Shown one piece after another: positions 25,946 to 36,800 of a stretch of 64,000 nt of DNA. The notes under the pieces were generated by a model. It made no database searches, was not told where the DNA came from, and saw nothing but the letters and a program-made list of their open reading frames with translations. Numbering within the stretch: position 1 is the stretch's first letter; each line of letters starts with the position of its first letter. Source of the stretch: Paecilomyces variotii. Its lineage: Eukaryota. The position numbers and the translations under genes were made by a program. The stretch is from assembly GCA_004022145.1 (NCBI GenBank), contig RCNU01000006.1; one strand, 5' to 3'.

Positions 25946-28064
25946 TTATGCCCCAGGAGCGGAGTGTGCCATCGGGTATGAAGGGGGTGTGATATAGGTG
26001 TAGAGCTCCGTGTTCGAGACATTGGCAGCGGCAGGACCTGGACCGATAGCGCCCGGGAAATCCCAAGATGTGCGATTCATGGGAGCCAGTGGCATCCCGT
26101 GACCATGCTGATATGTATATGAGGCAGACATAGCGGCGTACGGATGACTGCTCGGTGACATCGTGACACGTAGATCGGGAGCAGATAATGAGGGCTTTGC
26201 CTGGTGTATGTGCGGCGAGAAGACTGCTGAGGTCATGCCGGTGGAGTATGTGCTAGAGGTGACCGAGTCCGAGACGGACTGAGGCGAGCCCGCATGCTGA
26301 ACATCCGTTCTAGAATCTGAAGCTGAGCTGTTGCCGGGGTAGGATGAACATATCGGGGTGGGAAGCGCTCCGGCTGTCGAAGAGTAGCTGGCAGACTGTG
26401 CGCAGAGACCGAGGTCAGACATCATTACAACGTGGAAGGTGGCAGAAGGTGGTTTCAAAGAGGAACTCACGTATTTCCCAATGATCTTCTTAAGTGCATG
26501 CGACAGGATCTTCCAGGGGAAGACTTTCACATCCTTCTCGATGTTGCGAGGTTTAGGTGCCGGGAATCCCATGATGACCTTGAAAAAGTCCTCGCTGTCT
26601 GGCTTAGCCTTCGAGACGGTGAGAGGCCGGAATCCTTCCAGATTCCTGCGGATTCGATTCTTTTCCTCGACAGTAAATCGCACTCCAACCAGAGATTCAA
26701 GCAAATAGATGGTGTCCACACTGGTCACGAAACATTCCTTCTTGCCGTCCCAGTATATGCAGCTGATGCATATGCTGTTTGGGGTTCTGTCCTCTGGTGA
26801 AACGGGCTGAAAGTCCGCCTGGATGGTACTGCCGCTCTGCACCCGAGTGAACTGGACAAGGCGCCGCCTGGCCTCCTTCTCTTCACCGGTCCAATTCTCA
26901 GCCATTGAGTCCAGATCGCCGTTCAGTTTTAGGACAGCTTTGGAGGGGTACATGGCGTAGGGGTTGAATGCCGGTGGTCCAACAGAGCCACTTCCCTGCT
27001 GTATAGTCGATGTCCTAATGAGTGTAGGGTTTTGAGGTCGGGCAGGAGAGAGCATTGTCTTCTGGCTCGGGGCCGAGGCTGCCGCTAGATGAGGACTGCG
27101 CGAGACATGACTGACCATGCCGAATGAAGGGCTCCAAGAAGAGGTCAAAGGCGACGGCGTATGGATTGCCGGTTGTGGCGCACTAGAGCCTCGTGAATGA
27201 TGGATAAATGAAGCTTTCGGGGAAGACGCTGTCCGATACGGGGCCGGGAAGACACTCATTGTTGTCGGAGTCTGTAAAAAGGAGGAATATGACGGAGACG
27301 AAGCACTGTCATTATACGAATATGCATCAGCATCTTCTTTGATCCGCAGTTGTTGAGCAGAAGGTCTCTTGGTTGGTCTCGGAGCGGCATTGTCAGAAAT
27401 TGAGACTCTCCTTTTCCGTGAATCATCTGAAGGGGAATCATGATCGACCGTTTCGTAAGTATAAACGCCCACCTGAAGCGTCAAAGGGCTGTATCCTGGC
27501 TGGTTCTCGATCACTACCTGCAGTGGAACCGCAGCTGATGGGCTCCCTGAAAGTGCGAATGCAGGTGCATCAACTGAGAGGGCATACTGAAAAACGGAAT
27601 TCGAGAAGCCCAGGAAGTGCGGTAAACATTCACATTTCTTCGAGCCAAATATCACGTAGGTGGCACAAAGCCGGTTGTGGAGGTCATATGGTGATTGTAT
27701 CTGTACGAAGACCTTGGTGCCTTCGCCGCCTCTCTGAGGAGAGTAAGATGTGACTTCAGGGATCTGAAGAGTCGCACGATCAAGACCGGGGGAGCCAGAT
27801 CCATCGAAGGAGATACGTCCTGCATAGTCGTGTTCCGTCATATAATGGAGGCTCTCTGTGTTCTGGCTGGCGTGGTCATCGGAGGAAGAGGGGAAGAGCT
27901 CGTTCACATATTGTCCCTGAGAATATGCTGGATAGACAGAGCCATCATAATCTGCCAGGACGTTATATGTTGTTAGCTGTCACGACTGCCAAATGCCCGT
28001 GAGCTGGTTCCACAGGTCACTTACCGACTAAGCCAGCATCAGAAGGCCTTTGAAAGGCAGACAT
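25946..28064 (-). CDS. medA: Developmental regulator Medusa (MedA/ACON-3); AUG model exons 28064-28025, 27951-26471, 26395-25946; probable GUG-initiated extension to 28363
   Basis: Conserved core ISCIYWD..CFVTSVDTIYLLE..EEKNRIRRNLEGFRPLTVSK..PKPRNIEKDVKVFPWK..IIGKY|SASY; introns 28024-27952 and 26470-26396. Confidence 0.92.
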
Positions 28065-30855
28065 AGGCAACACGGGTTCAGACTTGGCCAAAAGGCCGTC
28101 TGAGAACGCCCCCGCGAACCGTGACTCTTCAGGGTCTGAGAAATCCAATGACTCGTCAATGACCAGAGGAGTCTGGAATTCTGGATCGAACTATATAGCA
28201 AGACAATGATTAGCTGTATTTTTATATGCTGGCGAGAAGAGCCAACGGCTTTTCTGATTCCTGTCGGATCCATTGGAGTTCCCCTGAATCGAACACCCTC
28301 GCAAGAAAGAGCAGTAGAATGGTTCTCTCTTACCAGAACACCTTGCGTCTTTGAGTACGCCACCTTGAATAGCGTTGCAGTAATTGCAACGAGCGATTAA
28401 ATCGACAAGCGAATGACTGCGAACTCAAATATTCAACTACCGTGTCTACGGAAAGACACAATGGCTTCCCGAGACAGAAACGAGCGACGACACGTAGTTG
28501 CCACAGGACTTCAACGAAAAAGTAGAAACCAGAGCTCCGGATATTGTTGGATGTAGACGAGGCTAGATCCACTGTCGAAGGGCTTCATGTAAAGATTATC
28601 AGCATCAGAGAAGCGAAAGAAACGAGGAACACGCCCAAAGAGGCGATCGTCCAGTACCAGGCAATCTTCTCAATATGTGAGAAGAGATGTTTTGCTTGTT
28701 TTGCTCTCTGGTCCACTAATTGCAGCGAGTTTCGGAAAGCGGATGTAGGTTAAGCACCAGTAACGAAAGTGAATGGGGGTATATGTCGTGGTCAAATTGT
28801 CCACTGGTTGTGTACGGCGATATCAGCCCCATTCGTTCGGCCGACTGCATAAAGTAGAAAGTAGCACTTACCAAGTAGATACCAAGAGGCAGAGCCGAGA
28901 AAGCAACAGTTCTGAGAGAAAGACGAAGAAGGGAAATAACTGAAGGTAGGAAGATCCTGAACAGTAGAGTCAGTTATCCTGGACAATTCATGCCGTGCAC
29001 GACCATCCCACGAGTGCCTGCAAGATAAAGGAAGGTATCGCATGGCTGCTGTGCTGTGACGGGCGGGGATAGCCTTTTCGGGAAGCAAGGAGGGCCCATC
29101 AAGGATCGTGAATAACAACGCAAGGTACAGGGAGAAATAGGCAACCGGGAGAGAAAGGAGGTCTGTACTAACCTAAGCGGAGCTATTCAGAATCCCAGAG
29201 GACCCGTACTCTTCCAAAACGTTCAAATCCGTCTCCTGCTCTCTCCTACCCAAAGAGGATGCCTCCGAAACAAGAAGAGCTGGGATTTCCAAAAATCTGA
29301 CCCTCAGCCAAAGCAAAATACAAGGTTTACAAGCTCAAATCCGCCTGTAAATGAATACCAGATGCTTCCTCCGTAAAGATATTGGCGTCGAATTTGGCCC
29401 AAGACGATGGCGGGCTAGGCCAGATGGGAGCAGCTCGATGGGCACAACGCTGAACCAGATCCCACGTCTGTTCTGTCCACGACGACAATAACAAACGGCC
29501 AATCTGAACAGGATTCTACAACAGGAACGTTCTCGACACAGCAAACGGGTGGTTCGGGATGAGGCGTTGAAAGACGGCTATTAACCTCTCGGATTCCGTC
29601 TTGTAGATCCTCTCTCGGGTCCTTGTAGATTTCCCCAGAGGCAAGACCGCAACGAATGTCGTCCCAGGATCAACCAAAAATGATATGCAAGATAAATTAG
29701 CGATTAATCTCTCCTTTCCGTTCTCCGGTCTCTCTCTCTCTCTCTTTCCGTGGTCCCCAGCAGTCAAAGTAGCGAACGTGATGTGATGCAGCCCCAAGCG
29801 AGTGGAGGAGCGAGTGTAAGTGGAAGCGGAAGAAAGAAGGAAAACTTCACGACGTCATCCAAGATACTGATGGGAAGGAAGCAGAAGAAGGGGGAGAAAT
29901 GAAGCGAGTTAAGAATAGGACGAGGAGGACAATAATAATGTTTTGTTCCCTTGCACTAGGGCCGACGGAGGATGTGCTCGTAGCAGACCACTAGTGACAG
30001 CAGTGGCGGGGGATGCACGCAGCACGAGAGCACCGGCGTCGAGTGACTAGGAGCGACAGGGCTCAGTAGGCTGCTCGTCGAGAGTATTAGGCAGTGGGAG
30101 ATCCTCCTCACGCAGCCGGAGCAGAGAGAACAGAACACGCTCACTACTGCCCATGCCAGCAACCATCCTATCCATGGGCAGGGTGGATGCGCTCACCGTC
30201 CATCGACTCCATCGGTATCCGGGAGACCCTGTCGGGTCCCATCCAGAGCCAAACAGAACTGCTACGCATCTCACGGCCGTTGGGAGGGGGGAGAAAGCAG
30301 GGGCCAAGCAGACGAAGAGCAAAGAATAGCAATCGAACAGCCGGAAGGGCGCCATCTGGTCGCCAGCGCTTCTCCTGAGTGGGTAAGAGGATGGGGTGGT
30401 GCGGAACGGCGTCGAAGCTCTTCAGGCTGACGGAGTTTGTGTCAGTCGGTTTGGTTGGAAGCTCTTCCAGCACCGCCTCGTTTCTCCCATCGCCAGATGG
30501 GTCATCCCTCGGTGCAGAGGCTTCGCTTCGGTCCAGGGATGTGCTTGACTGCTGAGCCTGACCCTACGGGAAGATTCCCTTGGCAGATACTAACATAGCT
30601 CCCCGGATCCAAAGATCCCATCGTTCGCGATCTTTGCCCTCCTGGGTTTGGTGCCACCCGTAGTCGTGGCTTCAGAGAGAAAAGAGAGGAGCCCGCCCAG
30701 GAGATGGGGACTGTATTACTATTATTCTAAGGAAAAGTAGGTCTATTTCCTTTTTCCCGCATCGTGGGTGATTATCGCTAACACCATCTCAGCTAACTAC
30801 CTACTTAACCGAGAGACCACTACATGACTCCTCTCTGACGGCCGTAGCCCATCGC

Positions 30856-30880
30856 TAATAATAATAATAATAATAATAAT
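30856..30880. repeat. (TAA)8 microsatellite
   Basis: Read directly. Confidence 0.85.
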
Positions 30881-33800
30881 GAGGGACTAGTTATAGTTAC
30901 TCGACAGAAAAAGGGTCCTCTTTCGCTCTCGAGCTCTCTCCAGCGTCCAACTCCGCATCCCAAACACCGGCGGAGGTCCTCCACCGACGGCGTGGATACG
31001 TTCAAATGGTGTCGCCGGCTCAATGTCATACCGTGTGGCGGCCTCTGGTGGTTGGACGAAAGGAGGGGGCTATCTGATCGGACAACTGTAGGACAATGGA
31101 GACGCCCTCTTACTGCTCAGCTGCCTCAGCATGACCCTTGGCAAGGTTGGCAGTGGACAACACGGAGAAAGGACGATAGTGATGATGATGGCTTGCTCTA
31201 AACATAGCAACATGCAAGGGCCGGGGCGTCTGGTTTGGGAATAGGCTGAGATGGGGCCCATCGTTCGCTACTTTAGAGTCCTCCAGCCCTGACAGGACTT
31301 TGCTCCAGTTAGACCCGTTTAGAAGCCTTCTGGCGTCTCGCTTCCATTGGACAGGATGACCGCAAATCAAAAAGCAGAACGAGACTCGACAGCAAACAGT
31401 CAGCGTCGCACAGGAGATCATTGCGACGGTGTAAGAAGATGGGCATCTCACTGGGCAAGGCCGCCACAGATCCCAGGGAGCCGGCGAACACCCTAACCAA
31501 AGCCTTGAACACGTTGGAACCGCGGTTAAGCGTCTGCCTTTGGACGGTTGACAGCTCAGGCTGTGGCTCAGGGAAAACCCCCACTCAGGAAACGCATTCC
31601 GTGGCATCCCTATACGGATGACGGAACATGATCCATCGCACAATGAAAATAATCCATCATTGTCGCTCCGTCTCGTAACTAGATATGATAGAATCACGCC
31701 AAGTGACGGAAGGCCATCCCCCGGCCAGCCTATCCTACCTTTACTGTCAGACGGAACAGCTGGCAGCCGGAATCGCTGCTGAAGCTAGGATGTCCGGTCA
31801 AAATAATTACGCCTAAGGCCATAGGATAACTAACTCCTTCCACGCAGTTAATAATCATCTGCGAGACGATTAACCGCTAGTTATAGCACACGGAGCATTC
31901 CCACCTATCGGGATTCGATACCGGTCCGAGATGCATTATCATAATACTCGTGCTTTCTTGTTTGCATTCTCTATGATCGCTTAGCCAAAATACGCATAGA
32001 AAGGCTGATGACCCGATGGTCATTTCTACTTCTGCCTCAGGCCTCGAACCATTGCATCTTACGATCTTCAGGGTACGGTTCAATGGAAGGCACCAGGGCA
32101 CGGTCCGATCTAAATAGAACCTTAAAAGTTCATTCTTCAAAGTTCACCGTGTATCAACCTTGCGATGTTTTCGTGGATGAGCAAGGGGGGTTTCTTTGGC
32201 GGGCAGGGAATGGAAAGCCAGGAAACGAGACCACAGAGGTGGGAGAACACTTCCTCGCTCCTCATTCTGCTGGAGACTCGAAGAGGTACTATTGCAAAGA
32301 AGGAAAGCAAGGGAGAATCGCACGGCAACTCATCAAGGAACAAACTCCCTCGATCAAAAGCACCTTCCAGGGTGCTCCACTGAACTTCCTAAGTCTGATA
32401 TCCCTGTCTTTATGATCCAGGGAGATTTCTGATTATTACAGAAGCCTATATTATTATCATTATTATTGCTGTCCGGCTTTGTTGCAAACACACTTCCCGT
32501 GGCCTGTGGCGCGCGGAGCCTTCTCCAGCCCACTAATGCCGGGATCCCGATATAGCACAGACGCTGCCGCCACGACTCACCTGCAGCCTGCAGATGCCAG
32601 ATGCCCTCTGGCTATGCCTTATGCCTTAGCGATCGACTGGCTCACCAGGAACGCCTGAACTGGCACAGCTGGACGCTGTGCGCCAACTGCATCAGACGTC
32701 CATCGACGTTGCAACGTCGCTGCTGTTACCCTGGCATTCCCCAGAATCCGACCCTATGTCCTTAGTTTAGAGTCTTCCATGGCGTGCACCGACAGCTGGC
32801 GCTACTCCCAACCTGCCACGGTGAATGTTATTGTCGCTTGTGCATACGCCATGCTTACCTCTCTGAAGAGATTGAGCAAACTCCGTCATGGGATGCTTCC
32901 GGCTCACTAGAGAGAGCTTACAGAATTAGTCTATCTATAGAGCTTCCCTCGTGTCTGCAATATTTCGAGGCTCTCGAGGTCAGGTGGCCCTCTTGAAATT
33001 CGAATTCCTTATCTGTACGGCGTACGGAGTAACTGCAGGACAAATACATTAGTCCCGCAGCCTGATTCGCCCGTGGGACGATTCGAGTATCATTCGTTCT
33101 CCGTATATCTCATACACGGAGTTCTATTCATAGCACGAGTTGTTCTATTCTTTCTTGCCTTTGCTGTTGGATAATTATCGCTGCTCAGCTTCAGCTGCTG
33201 TACTCTTCTGCCTGAGGGCAGTATTGTCGGTTCCCCACAGTGCCACCAAGCCGGCTCCTCGAAGGTGCTTGCAGATCAAAGTAATAGGCGGCTGCTACGC
33301 CAGAAGCCAAGAGAAGCTTTTATCGACAAACTCGTGCTAACGCTCTAACGCTCAAGGCTTGTTAGAGACGGCTCCATAGCCACTTGAGTCAATAGTCTGT
33401 CGACCATTCTGTGTCTATAACTATCGCACGGGGTATACGCGCCATAAATGACAAGCTTACTATCTTTGCAGCTATAAAAGGAGATAGTTGGCTGTTGGAG
33501 ATATGTCGACAAGAAAGGTGGGAGAAACCTCCACCTTGGATGAGTGTGGACGTCGAAAGATCACAATTTCTGGATTCTGTTCCTTGATGATATCCTTAGG
33601 TGACCATGGCAAGGCAATCCTTTCACACAATAGACAAAGAATTCTTCCGTGATTGAGAATTGTTATTCCAGTGGCCCACGAAGACCCCCTTTCGAACATC
33701 AAAAAAAAGATTTGGCGACCGGGATGTTCCGTCCGGGGATGATTTCCTCCGTCCGTGCAACTTCTGGATTTCATTATTAGGTCGACGATCAACATTGACG

Positions 33801-36800
33801 CCTATCCGTCAATTCAGATCATCGTTCTTGGAGGCCCAAAAATGAAACCATTTAAAGGCCCATCTGAGTGGACTTCGGTCGTAAGTACTCTCCATTGTTA
33901 TTTACTCTATTATTGAGTCCAAATCCGGACTATTACTAGCGACCAACAGCTGCGAACTACTACCACATAAAGTTAACAATAATGGCCGGGGCCCAAAGTA
34001 AAGCTTCCGCCACAGATTATGTCGGAGCTCAACAATACTCGAAGAACAAAAGGGGTGAGCGGCAGACGCGACGTGGCTTGGCAATGGCATCGTTCATGTC
34101 AGAATTCCAGTAGTCACTTATCGTTTAACTTAAAACGAGGCGCAACACGGGTGAACAGGACACGATGCGATCTTACGACCCTACCTTAACTGGATATAGC
34201 TTGACCTACCAGAAATCTGCCGTAGGCAAACCTGCCATCTTTTTCCAGAACAACGAATGGATTCTTCTTCGCTTCAACCGTCCGTTAGGGCTGTCCGGCA
34301 TTCGTTGCAGCTCGCCCATGCCCGCTTTCCTGGTCAGACAATCAGACCGACGATCTCAGGCTTGCTCCCGAACCTTAAAAAAAACAGTATAGCGTCCTTG
34401 TCGCTAACTACTCCGTAGTTAGCTATCAGTGCTGTACTCCGTATTCTACGCAATGCACCTTTGGGGAGTCCAAGAGAAAATTTCCTCGTGAAATCTACCA
34501 GAACAACTCCCAGATAATAATACGTCAGCAAGTCCCCGTGAAGACAAAATCTCCAGCACATGTGTTGACAGACTAATTCGGTGATACCCCAGGAAAACAG
34601 TTCTACTAAACCATATTAGGTATTAGACATGATGCAAGCCCGCGGGTGAGGTACTCTCAATTATTGCATCCATGAGACCAGCTATCTAATGATAATTGGC
34701 TGTAGACCGGCTGTTGGTTTTGATATACCTATGTGACGAGACGGTTTGAGTTTACTCGAGTGACGCAGGTCGTTTCCTGGCCAATATCTGAGGAGTAGCT
34801 ATTATCTACCATAGCGGCCCGAACTGCACGTTATATTGAACAGGTTTCAGTCGATCTCGGCACGAAGCCTGTGGTGTCAAACTCTCAACCTCGCGGACCT
34901 GATAAGGCTTGCATGATCGCACGAGGGGCCTATGAATGATCAGTATCCCCTCGCTGGCCCATCTGCTCAACTCGAAGGTTCAGCCTTCACCCAAGGATAA
35001 CGACGCGTGATGAGAGGGCAGAGATCAACCACTTGTGGCGTCCGCCGTTCTCCTGCCTAGATACCTGTTCTGGCTGTGATATCTCTCCCTATGGCTACAG
35101 CTGCTAATTATAAAAAGTACATGCTGATCCACTTTGATTCAGGCTTTCTCCAACATCACGACAACGTTGCACTCTGAAATAAAAAATCTGTCGGCGCAAA
35201 CCCAAAAGCTGAACGGCGTCACTACATGATCGGCCGAACCGTTCAACAGACCGCCTCTCTCTGAATTGCGGTCAGGACTAGCTGTCGAGTCGGGAACCCT
35301 GACTGTAGTGCGCTATTCACTCAAGGGTAGCTTTGCCAATTGATCTAACTATATTAACTATACCCATCGATCTTGGTATTGTTTCTACCTTTGTGCACTG
35401 TAAGTCTGTCATGGCAGACGTCGCTGTCAGATTCCGACTGCGCTCATGCTTCTGACGAAAGCGAGATCTTGGCTCGGATGATTATCATTTTCTCATTAAT
35501 GACGGCTTCAATTGCCACCTCATGAGTGAGAAAGGGAACCAGGAGGATAATCTATGTGATTTCATGATTGACTATCCTGACCGCTTCTTCCAGGGACGAA
35601 GATTTTCACATCCGAGAAGGTGGAGATAGGTAAGCGCCTCGGTCAAGGTATCATACCATCTTCGCCTTGATCTCATATTCTACTCTCCAACATCGCCGCT
35701 CATGCGTATTGGCGTGATCGAGAAAACACCGAGACTTCTACATATAGAAAGCAAGATTCAGGATGTCTACAAGTCCCGACTATTAATAATATTTACTTGC
35801 TATTCGATTGCCCAGAGAGAGAACCACGGTACAAAACCGATTCCAATCTCTCCGCCCGGATGAAAGACCATGGAACGCGTTCTTTCGTCCTCCACAGAAG
35901 GGATACGATGATACATTGATTATCCCCCAGGAATGCCTGCTTTCGATCAATGCCATCGTCGTCTCTGAGTCTCCAGCTTCCTCTTTTAATGCCAAGGCAT
36001 TAAGTATTAGCTAATAAGCAAACTTGGCATCCCACCGTGGAATGGCGTTTCCGATGTTTGAAGCTCCCATTTTCGGCCTTCGCCGTCGGCTTATCCGTCA
36101 TCATTTCCTATCCAGGGCATTGTACAGTACAACAGTTAATAATAATGGGTCTCCGTGAAACTGTTTTCTTCAGCCCTTTCAACGGCCGAGCATTTAAACG
36201 GTTCATCCCATCCCCACATTAAGTACCGTCGGGTCAACCGTCAAACTGAGTAAATTGTTCAGCTCTCCTCGAGTCGATTAATAATAAAAATAAATTGCAT
36301 AACTAACTAACAGATAAACTATAATCCCACCACGACCCGAAAAAGACCGGTTAGTTATTTACTAGAGAAAAAAACAAAAGGACATATCATTCGTTTCGAA
36401 AAGTCTCAGTTCTAAACCCGGAGCTTTTTAGCCTCGGAGCTCCGACCTTGACTCTGGAGACATTTCCAAAGATAGTATATGCTGCTAAATTTAAAAAAAG
36501 GTTCCTATGGTATAGATTTGGCCTGTCTTCCCAGTTAGTCTAGTTCAACCCGGCAAACTTTAAATTTCTTTTTTTTACCCTTTCCTTTTTCCTTCATTGT
36601 CCCGAATCCCGCGTTTTGCAAATGCAATAATAATAATGCGCGGTTACACTACTAGTTAGCTTTTTCTCTCTCTTCCTATTTTTTATACGAGAACTACGAG
36701 AAATAATAATAACTTGATATAATTGGTCAATTAATATACCTCTATCATCATCTACTTAGTGGAGCGGACAAGGATGTTTTATAATTAGCCAAACTCGATA

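Follow-up and report, generated by a model that had tools for sequence, protein, structure and literature searches.

A conserved non-AUG start codon and a 52-residue N-terminal extension predicted for the conidiation regulator gene medA of Paecilomyces variotii and other Eurotiomycetes

The window analysed here is a 64,000 nt stretch of DNA from Paecilomyces variotii (NCBI GenBank assembly GCA_004022145.1, contig RCNU01000006.1), the minus strand of which carries a gene identified by sequence similarity as the orthologue, in this member of the Eurotiales (Thermoascaceae), of medA, encoding the much-studied conidiation regulator MedA. Translation of this gene probably begins at a GUG codon at position 28363, which would produce a 708 aa form of MedA with a 52-residue N-terminal extension, alongside a 656 aa form initiated at the AUG at position 28064. 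The extension is conserved as coding sequence, is interrupted by an intron found removed in RNA from three studies, and in related fungi would begin at a CUG, a GUG or, in two orthologues, apparently an AUG codon at the same position. The evidence supports medA as an instance of a conserved, non-AUG-initiated N-terminal extension, to which the closest known case is that of cpc-1.

Structure of the medA transcript

One search found 20 runs containing this stretch, eight of them recorded as RNA. Contigs from four runs, belonging to four studies, were mapped to positions 27500-29700; rare variants drop out of such contigs. Three of these runs (X3, X4 and X6, from three studies) yielded one spliced contig each, all with the same four joints; the single contig from X1 was unspliced, could represent either DNA or pre-mRNA, and is uninformative either way. 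The features of the transcript around the proposed start are as follows, pN/pS being the ratio of the proportions of nonsynonymous and synonymous differences.

28957..29172, minus strand: leader intron of 216 nt; joint in X3, X4 and X6, ends placed by the GT-AG rule
28804..28871, minus strand: leader intron of 68 nt; joint in X3, X4 and X6
28397..28399, minus strand: TAA stop codon in frame with the GTG and 12 codons upstream of it, the intervening 11 being sense codons; kept in the mature mRNA
28361..28363, minus strand: proposed GUG start codon, flanked as TTCAAG GTG GCG with A at -3 and G at +4, from the sequence and the conserved NTG
28334..28363, minus strand: opening ten codons of the extension (VAYSKTQGVL), with which leader exon 28803-28334 ends; [LV]AYSKT[HQ]GVL in close relatives
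28191..28333, minus strand: phase-0 intron of 143 nt, GTAAGA...GCTAAT...TATAG; joint in X3, X4 and X6
28065..28190, minus strand: 42 extension codons in exon 2 (the first 42 residues of protein P0001), acidic and predicted to be disordered; conserved, with a pN/pS of 0.30
28062..28064, minus strand: first AUG, taken as the start in published work, in the weak context CCT ATG T (pyrimidine at -3, T at +4), from alignments
27952..28024, minus strand: phase-1 intron of 73 nt following the AUG exon; joint in X3, X4 and X6

The initial annotation, made from the sequence of the window, had proposed that an intron at 28333-28191 joins a ten-codon segment beginning with GTG to the exon containing the AUG, and the corresponding 28334/28190 junction is present in the spliced contigs of all three studies. 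Exon 28803-28334 is unbroken in each of these contigs, which means that splicing does not remove the in-frame TAA and that the ten codons do not form a separate micro-exon attached to an ATG exon further upstream. That arrangement, with a micro-exon of 30 nt, is the one adopted for P. variotii by the public models P0002 and P0003, and is ruled out by the contiguous exon in the RNA; splicing to a different upstream AUG exon, against which the initial annotation had cautioned, likewise has no counterpart in any of the three contigs.

Conservation of the extension

As had been proposed, exon 2 is open from 28190 for 42 codons, up to the in-frame ATG at 28064. An open frame of this length is unremarkable alone (the chance being estimated at about 0.13, from (61/64)^42); chance is rejected because named MedA proteins share 64-82% identity with the exon-2 peptide and because of the ATG-free zone in which it lies (p of about 0.0025, see below). 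A scan of metagenome contigs recovered 15 loci, of which L002-L004 equal L001, L009 equals L007, and L008 is cut off within the first ten codons. The comparison accordingly comprises 11 distinct DNA sequences from the class Eurotiomycetes, namely this window and ten distinct metagenome loci that include the start region. An intron of 72-202 nt is located at the same codon in seven genomic loci, and has already been removed in L005, L011 and L012, which are spliced transcript contigs with open reading frames (ORFs) of 721, 736 and 703 aa, respectively, from the CTG. Neither frameshifts nor stop codons were found within the extension in any of the ten loci, these three transcripts included.

Amongst the 11 sequences, pN/pS is 0.30 in the exon-2 part of the extension, 0.46 in codons 2-10 and 0.32 overall, and 0.55 in the nine codons following the AUG. 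Out of 62 codon columns, 52 vary at the third position, 40 at the first and 36 at the second; in close relatives the codons of the first segment differ mainly at their third positions, and indels within the extension consist of whole codons. A representative search with a 54-residue exon-2 peptide returned 26 proteins at E <=0.001, of which 25 were MedA N-termini or short ORFs over the exon; the other, P0040, is an unrelated repeat protein and was discarded. In those ORFs that read through the intron, the residue preceding the conserved F is Q, corresponding to the acceptor CAG. Conservation begins exactly at the acceptor, hence the coding frame must come from the preceding exon. The extension is therefore open, conserved and of coding type.

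These observations bear on the simplest alternative, that MedA starts only at AUG 28064 and the preceding 156 nt are untranslated leader conserved at the RNA or DNA level, for instance as a regulatory element or an internal promoter. Work on A. fumigatus takes this AUG as the start (PMC3503810), and conservation at the nucleotide level does exist at this locus, in the form of deeply conserved non-coding blocks just upstream of the GTG. However, the coding-type substitutions, the whole-codon indels, the continuation of the conserved segment across a phase-0 intron, the end of peptide conservation at the NTG, where the spacing to upstream sequence shifts by 1 nt, and the apparent occurrence of ATG at exactly this codon in two orthologues are all at odds with an untranslated leader, and we regard an AUG-only start as very improbable.

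No Pfam family was matched by the exon-2 peptide. The extension contains ten acidic and three basic residues out of 52, and includes a motif of the type PL[IV][ILF][DG]ESLDFSD; from its composition and predicted disorder it looks like a short linear motif, and a role in transactivation or partner binding is a guess that might be made.

The proposed GUG/CUG start codon

The GTG at 28363-28361 was confirmed to lie in the context TTCAAG GTG GCG, with ten codons running on to 28334, and the frame to be closed upstream by the TAA at 28399-28397, both as initially annotated. The codon aligned to it is CTG in 9/11 sequences and GTG in the remaining two (this window and L001), and in all 11 it has A at -3 and G at +4. 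Strain differences at the start codon are not listed in any of the four mapped runs. In P. variotii and L012 there are 14 nt between the TGCAAC of an upstream inverted repeat (see below) and the start codon, compared with 13 nt in most sequences; owing to this 1 nt change, the reading frame is not kept upstream of the NTG. All ten sequences with sufficient upstream DNA have the frame closed 6-74 codons upstream, with no in-frame ATG between; L005, which runs off its end, was excluded from this count.

At the start position, 12 of the stored proteins that include the first segment have Leu, and P0100 and the P. variotii models have Val. Two others, P0049 and P0099, have Met, which is protein-level evidence only. 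The Paracoccidioides brasiliensis protein P0049 begins exactly at this residue (MAFPKNHCAQ..., compared with ..TLAFPKSHSAQ.. in Blastomyces), as does P0099 (MAFSTINRLQ, compared with VAFSTINRLQ in P0100). A codon of this kind, always NTG and in the best context, lying at the 5' limit of coding-type conservation and apparently ATG in some lineages, has, judged by comparative sequence analysis, the classical signature of a conserved non-AUG start; a conserved near-cognate codon at this position had been looked for on the strength of the initial annotation.

That the extension is translated from some other start, either a different near-cognate codon or an AUG in a rare transcript or splice form such as those of P0002 and P0003, seems very improbable. 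Between the TAA and the GTG of P. variotii there are an in-frame ACG (-4 codons) and ATT (-7 codons), but upstream near-cognate codons are conserved in neither position nor type. In-frame upstream ATGs are also present in the annotated proteins of A. alliaceus (P0016), Blastomyces (P0018) and Penicillium roqueforti (P0051), two transcription initiation sites are given for A. nidulans medA in a review (PMC3563288), and rare isoforms would be missed by contigs; yet the upstream ATGs vary from species to species, the mature RNAs of P. variotii, L011 and L012 have an in-frame stop and no ATG, and upstream of 28364 P0002 and P0003 contradict both one another and the RNA contigs.

The AUG at 28064 had been described as having poor context, and its CCT ATG T is typical of the group, the -3 position being T or C in 10/10 loci. 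The corresponding Met is invariant in alignments A1 and A5, and may be an internal residue of a conserved LSMS motif.

Several points weigh against the proposed start. GUG is usually a weak start, so the extended form may be a minor product in P. variotii. Since contigs drop rare variants, an upstream AUG exon may be spliced on in a minority of transcripts. In the distant loci L012, L014 and L015, codons 5-10 of the first segment are divergent, and the metagenome loci are mutually related, such that counts amongst them do not represent independent events. Residues 1-132 of the AlphaFold2 model of P0049 have a predicted local distance difference test score (pLDDT) below 50, leaving the extension disordered with no fold that would support a function. 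Profile searches, which depend on shared words, found no genuine match in Sordariomycetes, Dothideomycetes or Leotiomycetes. Finally, the A. fumigatus protein of 683 aa, cloned so as to begin at the AUG, is still nuclear (PMC3503810), so the extension is not needed for nuclear localisation.

Some of these points would fit a variant of the proposal in which GUG is used at a low level only, the 656 aa AUG form being the main protein and the extended form a minor or condition-specific one. We consider this a fair possibility, if less likely than not. Near-cognate codons are generally much weaker than AUG, the AUG at 28064 is invariant, and the AUG-started A. fumigatus protein localises correctly (PMC3503810); initiation at near-cognate codons is usually below 10%, according to the abstract of one study (10.1101/2020.03.06.980391). 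Set against this are the constraint on the extension, stronger than that on the codons after the AUG (pN/pS of 0.30 compared with 0.55), and the contexts of the two codons, the AUG being weak in 10/10 loci and the NTG strong in 11/11; the invariant Met, as noted, may be an internal residue.

The AUG-poor leader

The leader upstream of the GUG contains the following features, including two short upstream open reading frames (uORFs).

28364..29700, minus strand: confirmed 5' leader, 1053 nt when spliced, from the RNA contig joints
28605-28585 and 28588-28511, minus strand: two overlapping uORFs of 6 and 25 codons, providing the sole AUGs of the confirmed leader
28465..28490, minus strand: conserved leader block TCGTCGCTCGTTTCTGTCTCGGGAAG, from alignment A3
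28407..28419, minus strand: conserved leader block CAGTCATTCGCTT, from alignment A3
28374..28390, minus strand: inverted repeat GTTGCA-N5-TGCAAC, lying 10-11 nt upstream of the start codon, from alignment A3

It had been claimed that there is no AUG in any frame of the extension or for about 220 nt upstream, which holds in that the nearest ATG is at 28588, 225 nt from the GTG. None of the 11 sequences has an ATG in any frame of the extension, and in all ten where it could be located the nearest upstream ATG is 176-225 nt before the start, giving ATG-free zones of 329-378 nt; in mononucleotide shuffles the per-species p values are 0.0025-0.02, with the 378 nt zone of P. variotii at about 0.0025. 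Over the whole spliced leader of P. variotii there are two ATGs in 1053 nt, compared with 15.9 expected, and two or fewer were seen in 0/5000 shuffles; the remaining genomic ATGs of 28364-29700 are all within the two leader introns. Similarly, the L011 transcript has one ATG in the 1223 nt upstream, compared with 16 CAT.

The transcript contigs continue upstream of 29700, by about 620 contig letters in X4 and 1040 in X3, although a contig end cannot mark a transcription start. No stop-to-stop ORF of more than 224 codons exists on either strand of 29300-34000, and on this basis the RNA further upstream probably belongs to the medA leader and not to a neighbouring gene. This leaves about 4.7 kb (29300-34000) as an unusually large gene-free region before medA. 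On the minus strand of the genome, ATGs become dense again only upstream of approximately 30154, with a single ATG, at 29858, between.

One or two short uORFs are found 176-242 nt upstream of the start in all ten sequences, and in the nine loci other than P. variotii with enough sequence there is a short uORF at 176-195 nt. These often begin M-[LV]-I, and the orthologous ATG is apparently ACG in P. variotii, which has two other ATGs nearby. They were considered as candidate elements of GCN4/cpc-1-type control, in which translated uORFs determine, in response to eIF2 phosphorylation, the number of ribosomes arriving at the main start. A conserved-peptide uORF was considered and rejected: the position is kept, but the peptide, length and frame vary, and P. 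variotii seems to have the ACG. The three nucleotide blocks listed above are conserved across the Eurotiomycetes, two of them having the core TC[AG][CT]TCG[CT]TT in common; their role might be that of RNA elements, of binding sites for proteins or of an internal promoter. The GTTGCA-N5-TGCAAC stem could pair in 85% of alignment cells, with four pairs changed on both sides. As the stem hardly varies among the eight closer sequences, and L014 and L015 are doubtfully aligned there, the hairpin was set aside. An Rfam scan of 27900-30800, with E up to 1, found no match.

Given this arrangement, ribosomes would scan a long leader (at least 1053 nt after removal of the two introns) that is almost free of AUG, or would reach its 3' end by rescanning after one of the two short uORFs at 28605-28511, or would scan from a second, more downstream transcription start. 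A share of them would start at GUG 28363, in its strong context, with initiator tRNA, yielding the 708 aa MedA; those passing it would encounter no AUG in any frame for 156 nt, and then the weak AUG 28064, from which the 656 aa form would be made. The balance of the two isoforms may be set by the stringency of start codon selection, as originally suggested.

A more far-reaching proposal is that the CUG- or GUG-started form is the working MedA throughout the class, with dosage and isoform ratio reading out start-codon stringency and eIF2 availability. It would thereby act as a translational timer of conidiophore development, and of adherence in pathogens, with the 52-residue acidic extension as the long-sought effector or partner-binding part. 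To our knowledge, no DNA-binding or activation domain is known for MedA. We think it unlikely that this proposal is correct in full.

Relation to known systems

A full-text literature search around medA, the coverage of which did not extend to the original medA descriptions or to supplements, found no paper describing medA, acon-3, REN1 or ACR1 as having a non-AUG start, and the only experimentally studied fungal non-AUG extension to emerge from it was that of cpc-1, encoding CPC1 of Neurospora crassa (Ivanov et al. 2017, PMC5487733). Like medA, cpc-1 encodes a fungal transcription regulator and has a long leader with uORFs, and a conserved AUG-free in-frame extension with near-cognate starts upstream of the main AUG, first recognised from phylogenetic evidence (PMC5487733). 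However, in cpc-1 a frame of >700 nt is open throughout, there are several candidate near-cognate codons and uORF2 overlaps it (PMC5487733), whereas medA has one sharply defined NTG, 52 codons, an intron within the extension and, in two lineages, apparently ATG at the same codon. Data on cpc-1 include in vitro and ribosome-profiling experiments (PMC5487733); medA is known here from sequence and RNA contigs. The available text of the cpc-1 paper does not mention medA or acon-3 (PMC5487733).

In animals, non-AUG extensions such as the PTEN leader proteoforms were likewise detected through coding-type conservation of the leader up to a conserved near-cognate codon with a favourable context, and there too an AUG form is made, through leaky scanning (PMC4892431). 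The genes are unrelated and from another kingdom, and the leader of medA is >1 kb and almost AUG-free. Amongst conidiation regulators, brlA and stuA have, like medA, two transcription start sites each (PMC3563288); a non-AUG start is not mentioned for brlA, stuA or medA in the accessible parts of that review (PMC3563288), and the parts available of a paper mapping A. fumigatus untranslated regions mention neither medA nor non-AUG starts (PMC12810187). MedA belongs to a developmental pathway that, in the literature consulted, is so far treated as transcriptional. Both brlA and stuA start at AUG, and their mRNAs carry uORFs.

The MedA described in A. fumigatus (683 aa from the AUG; PMC3503810) belongs to the same DUF7082 family as that of P. 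variotii, and starts at the conserved AUG equivalent to 28064. Primer MedA-F encodes MSTFQKPP, and so begins at the AUG Met, and N-terminal truncations of the protein accumulate faster (PMC3503810). This description and the public Eurotiomycete models either leave out the extension or have its first ten residues exchanged for translated intron or leader. The MedA protein studied to date thus probably lacks its conserved front end. In A. fumigatus, MedA also governs adherence and virulence, by a mechanism that remains unknown according to the abstract (PMC3503810).

Were the proposed start to be correct, constructs and gene models would be in use without the most conserved N-terminal motif of MedA, and dozens of public Eurotiomycete models would be wrong in differing ways, because annotation pipelines insist on ATG. 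MedA output would hinge on initiation at a near-cognate codon behind an AUG-free leader of >1 kb, adding a translational layer to its pathway. It would also provide, for filamentous fungi, a clean, class-wide case in which one non-AUG start is conserved.

Taxonomic distribution and public gene models

Profile searches recovered 74 and 44 proteins with the extension, in which every named source but one is a Eurotiomycete; these include Onygenales, Arachnomyces, Endocarpon (Verrucariales) and a species of Chaetothyriales, thereby spanning both subclasses of the Eurotiomycetes. The exception, the partial sequence P0090, labelled Fusarium sp. NRRL 66182, was rejected as a Sordariomycete case, being nearly identical to the Talaromyces marneffei N-terminus P0087, and its sequence suggests that it is probably a contaminant contig in the Fusarium assembly.

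The two public medA models of P. variotii, P0002 (935 aa) and P0003 (999 aa), come from two strains and reach an ATG near 30560 via different exons, conflicting with each other and with the RNA contigs over the exon upstream of 28364. The exons leading towards this ATG are invented, and amount to translated leader fused to the gene. Models in other genera have translated intron or uORF ATGs in place of the first residues, with starts that differ by species; such divergent, ad hoc ATG starts are the expected outcome where an AUG start is missing.

The medA locus

The large exon of the gene matches Pfam family DUF7082 (PF23305) over residues 337-490 of the exon (E 7.6e-75, 250 bits compared with a cut-off of 27). 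The N-terminal exon peptide has 100% identical matches in P. variotii proteins, and the exon-2 peptide has 64-82% identity to proteins of Aspergillus, Penicillium, Blastomyces and Ophidiomyces that are named MedA or Medusa or annotated with DUF7082; matches in A. clavatus, A. tanneri, A. homomorphus, Histoplasma and Talaromyces are named 'transcriptional regulator medA'. It is on the DUF7082 match and the identity to MedA/Medusa proteins that the assignment as the P. variotii medA orthologue is based. The part of the gene downstream of the features already given is:

25946..27951, minus strand: rest of the medA coding sequence, composed of exon 27951-26471, intron 26470-26396 and the last exon 26395-25946 including the stop codon

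Intron 26470-26396 is placed on the basis of homologues. When spliced, medA has 708 codons from the GTG and 656 from the ATG, and the 708-residue translation differs from the matching part of P0002 at 3/708 residues. The AlphaFold2 model of the orthologue P0049, calculated from a 37-row alignment, has as its only folded parts a beta-sandwich at residues 138-240 and DUF7082 at 415-575; approximately 60% of the model is at pLDDT <50.

The spliced contigs from X3 and X4 reach about 2.7 kb beyond 27500, and so run on for roughly 1.2 kb after the medA stop at 25946, to around 24700 on the minus strand. The RNA beyond 25946 is either a long 3' untranslated region or an overlap with a neighbouring transcript.

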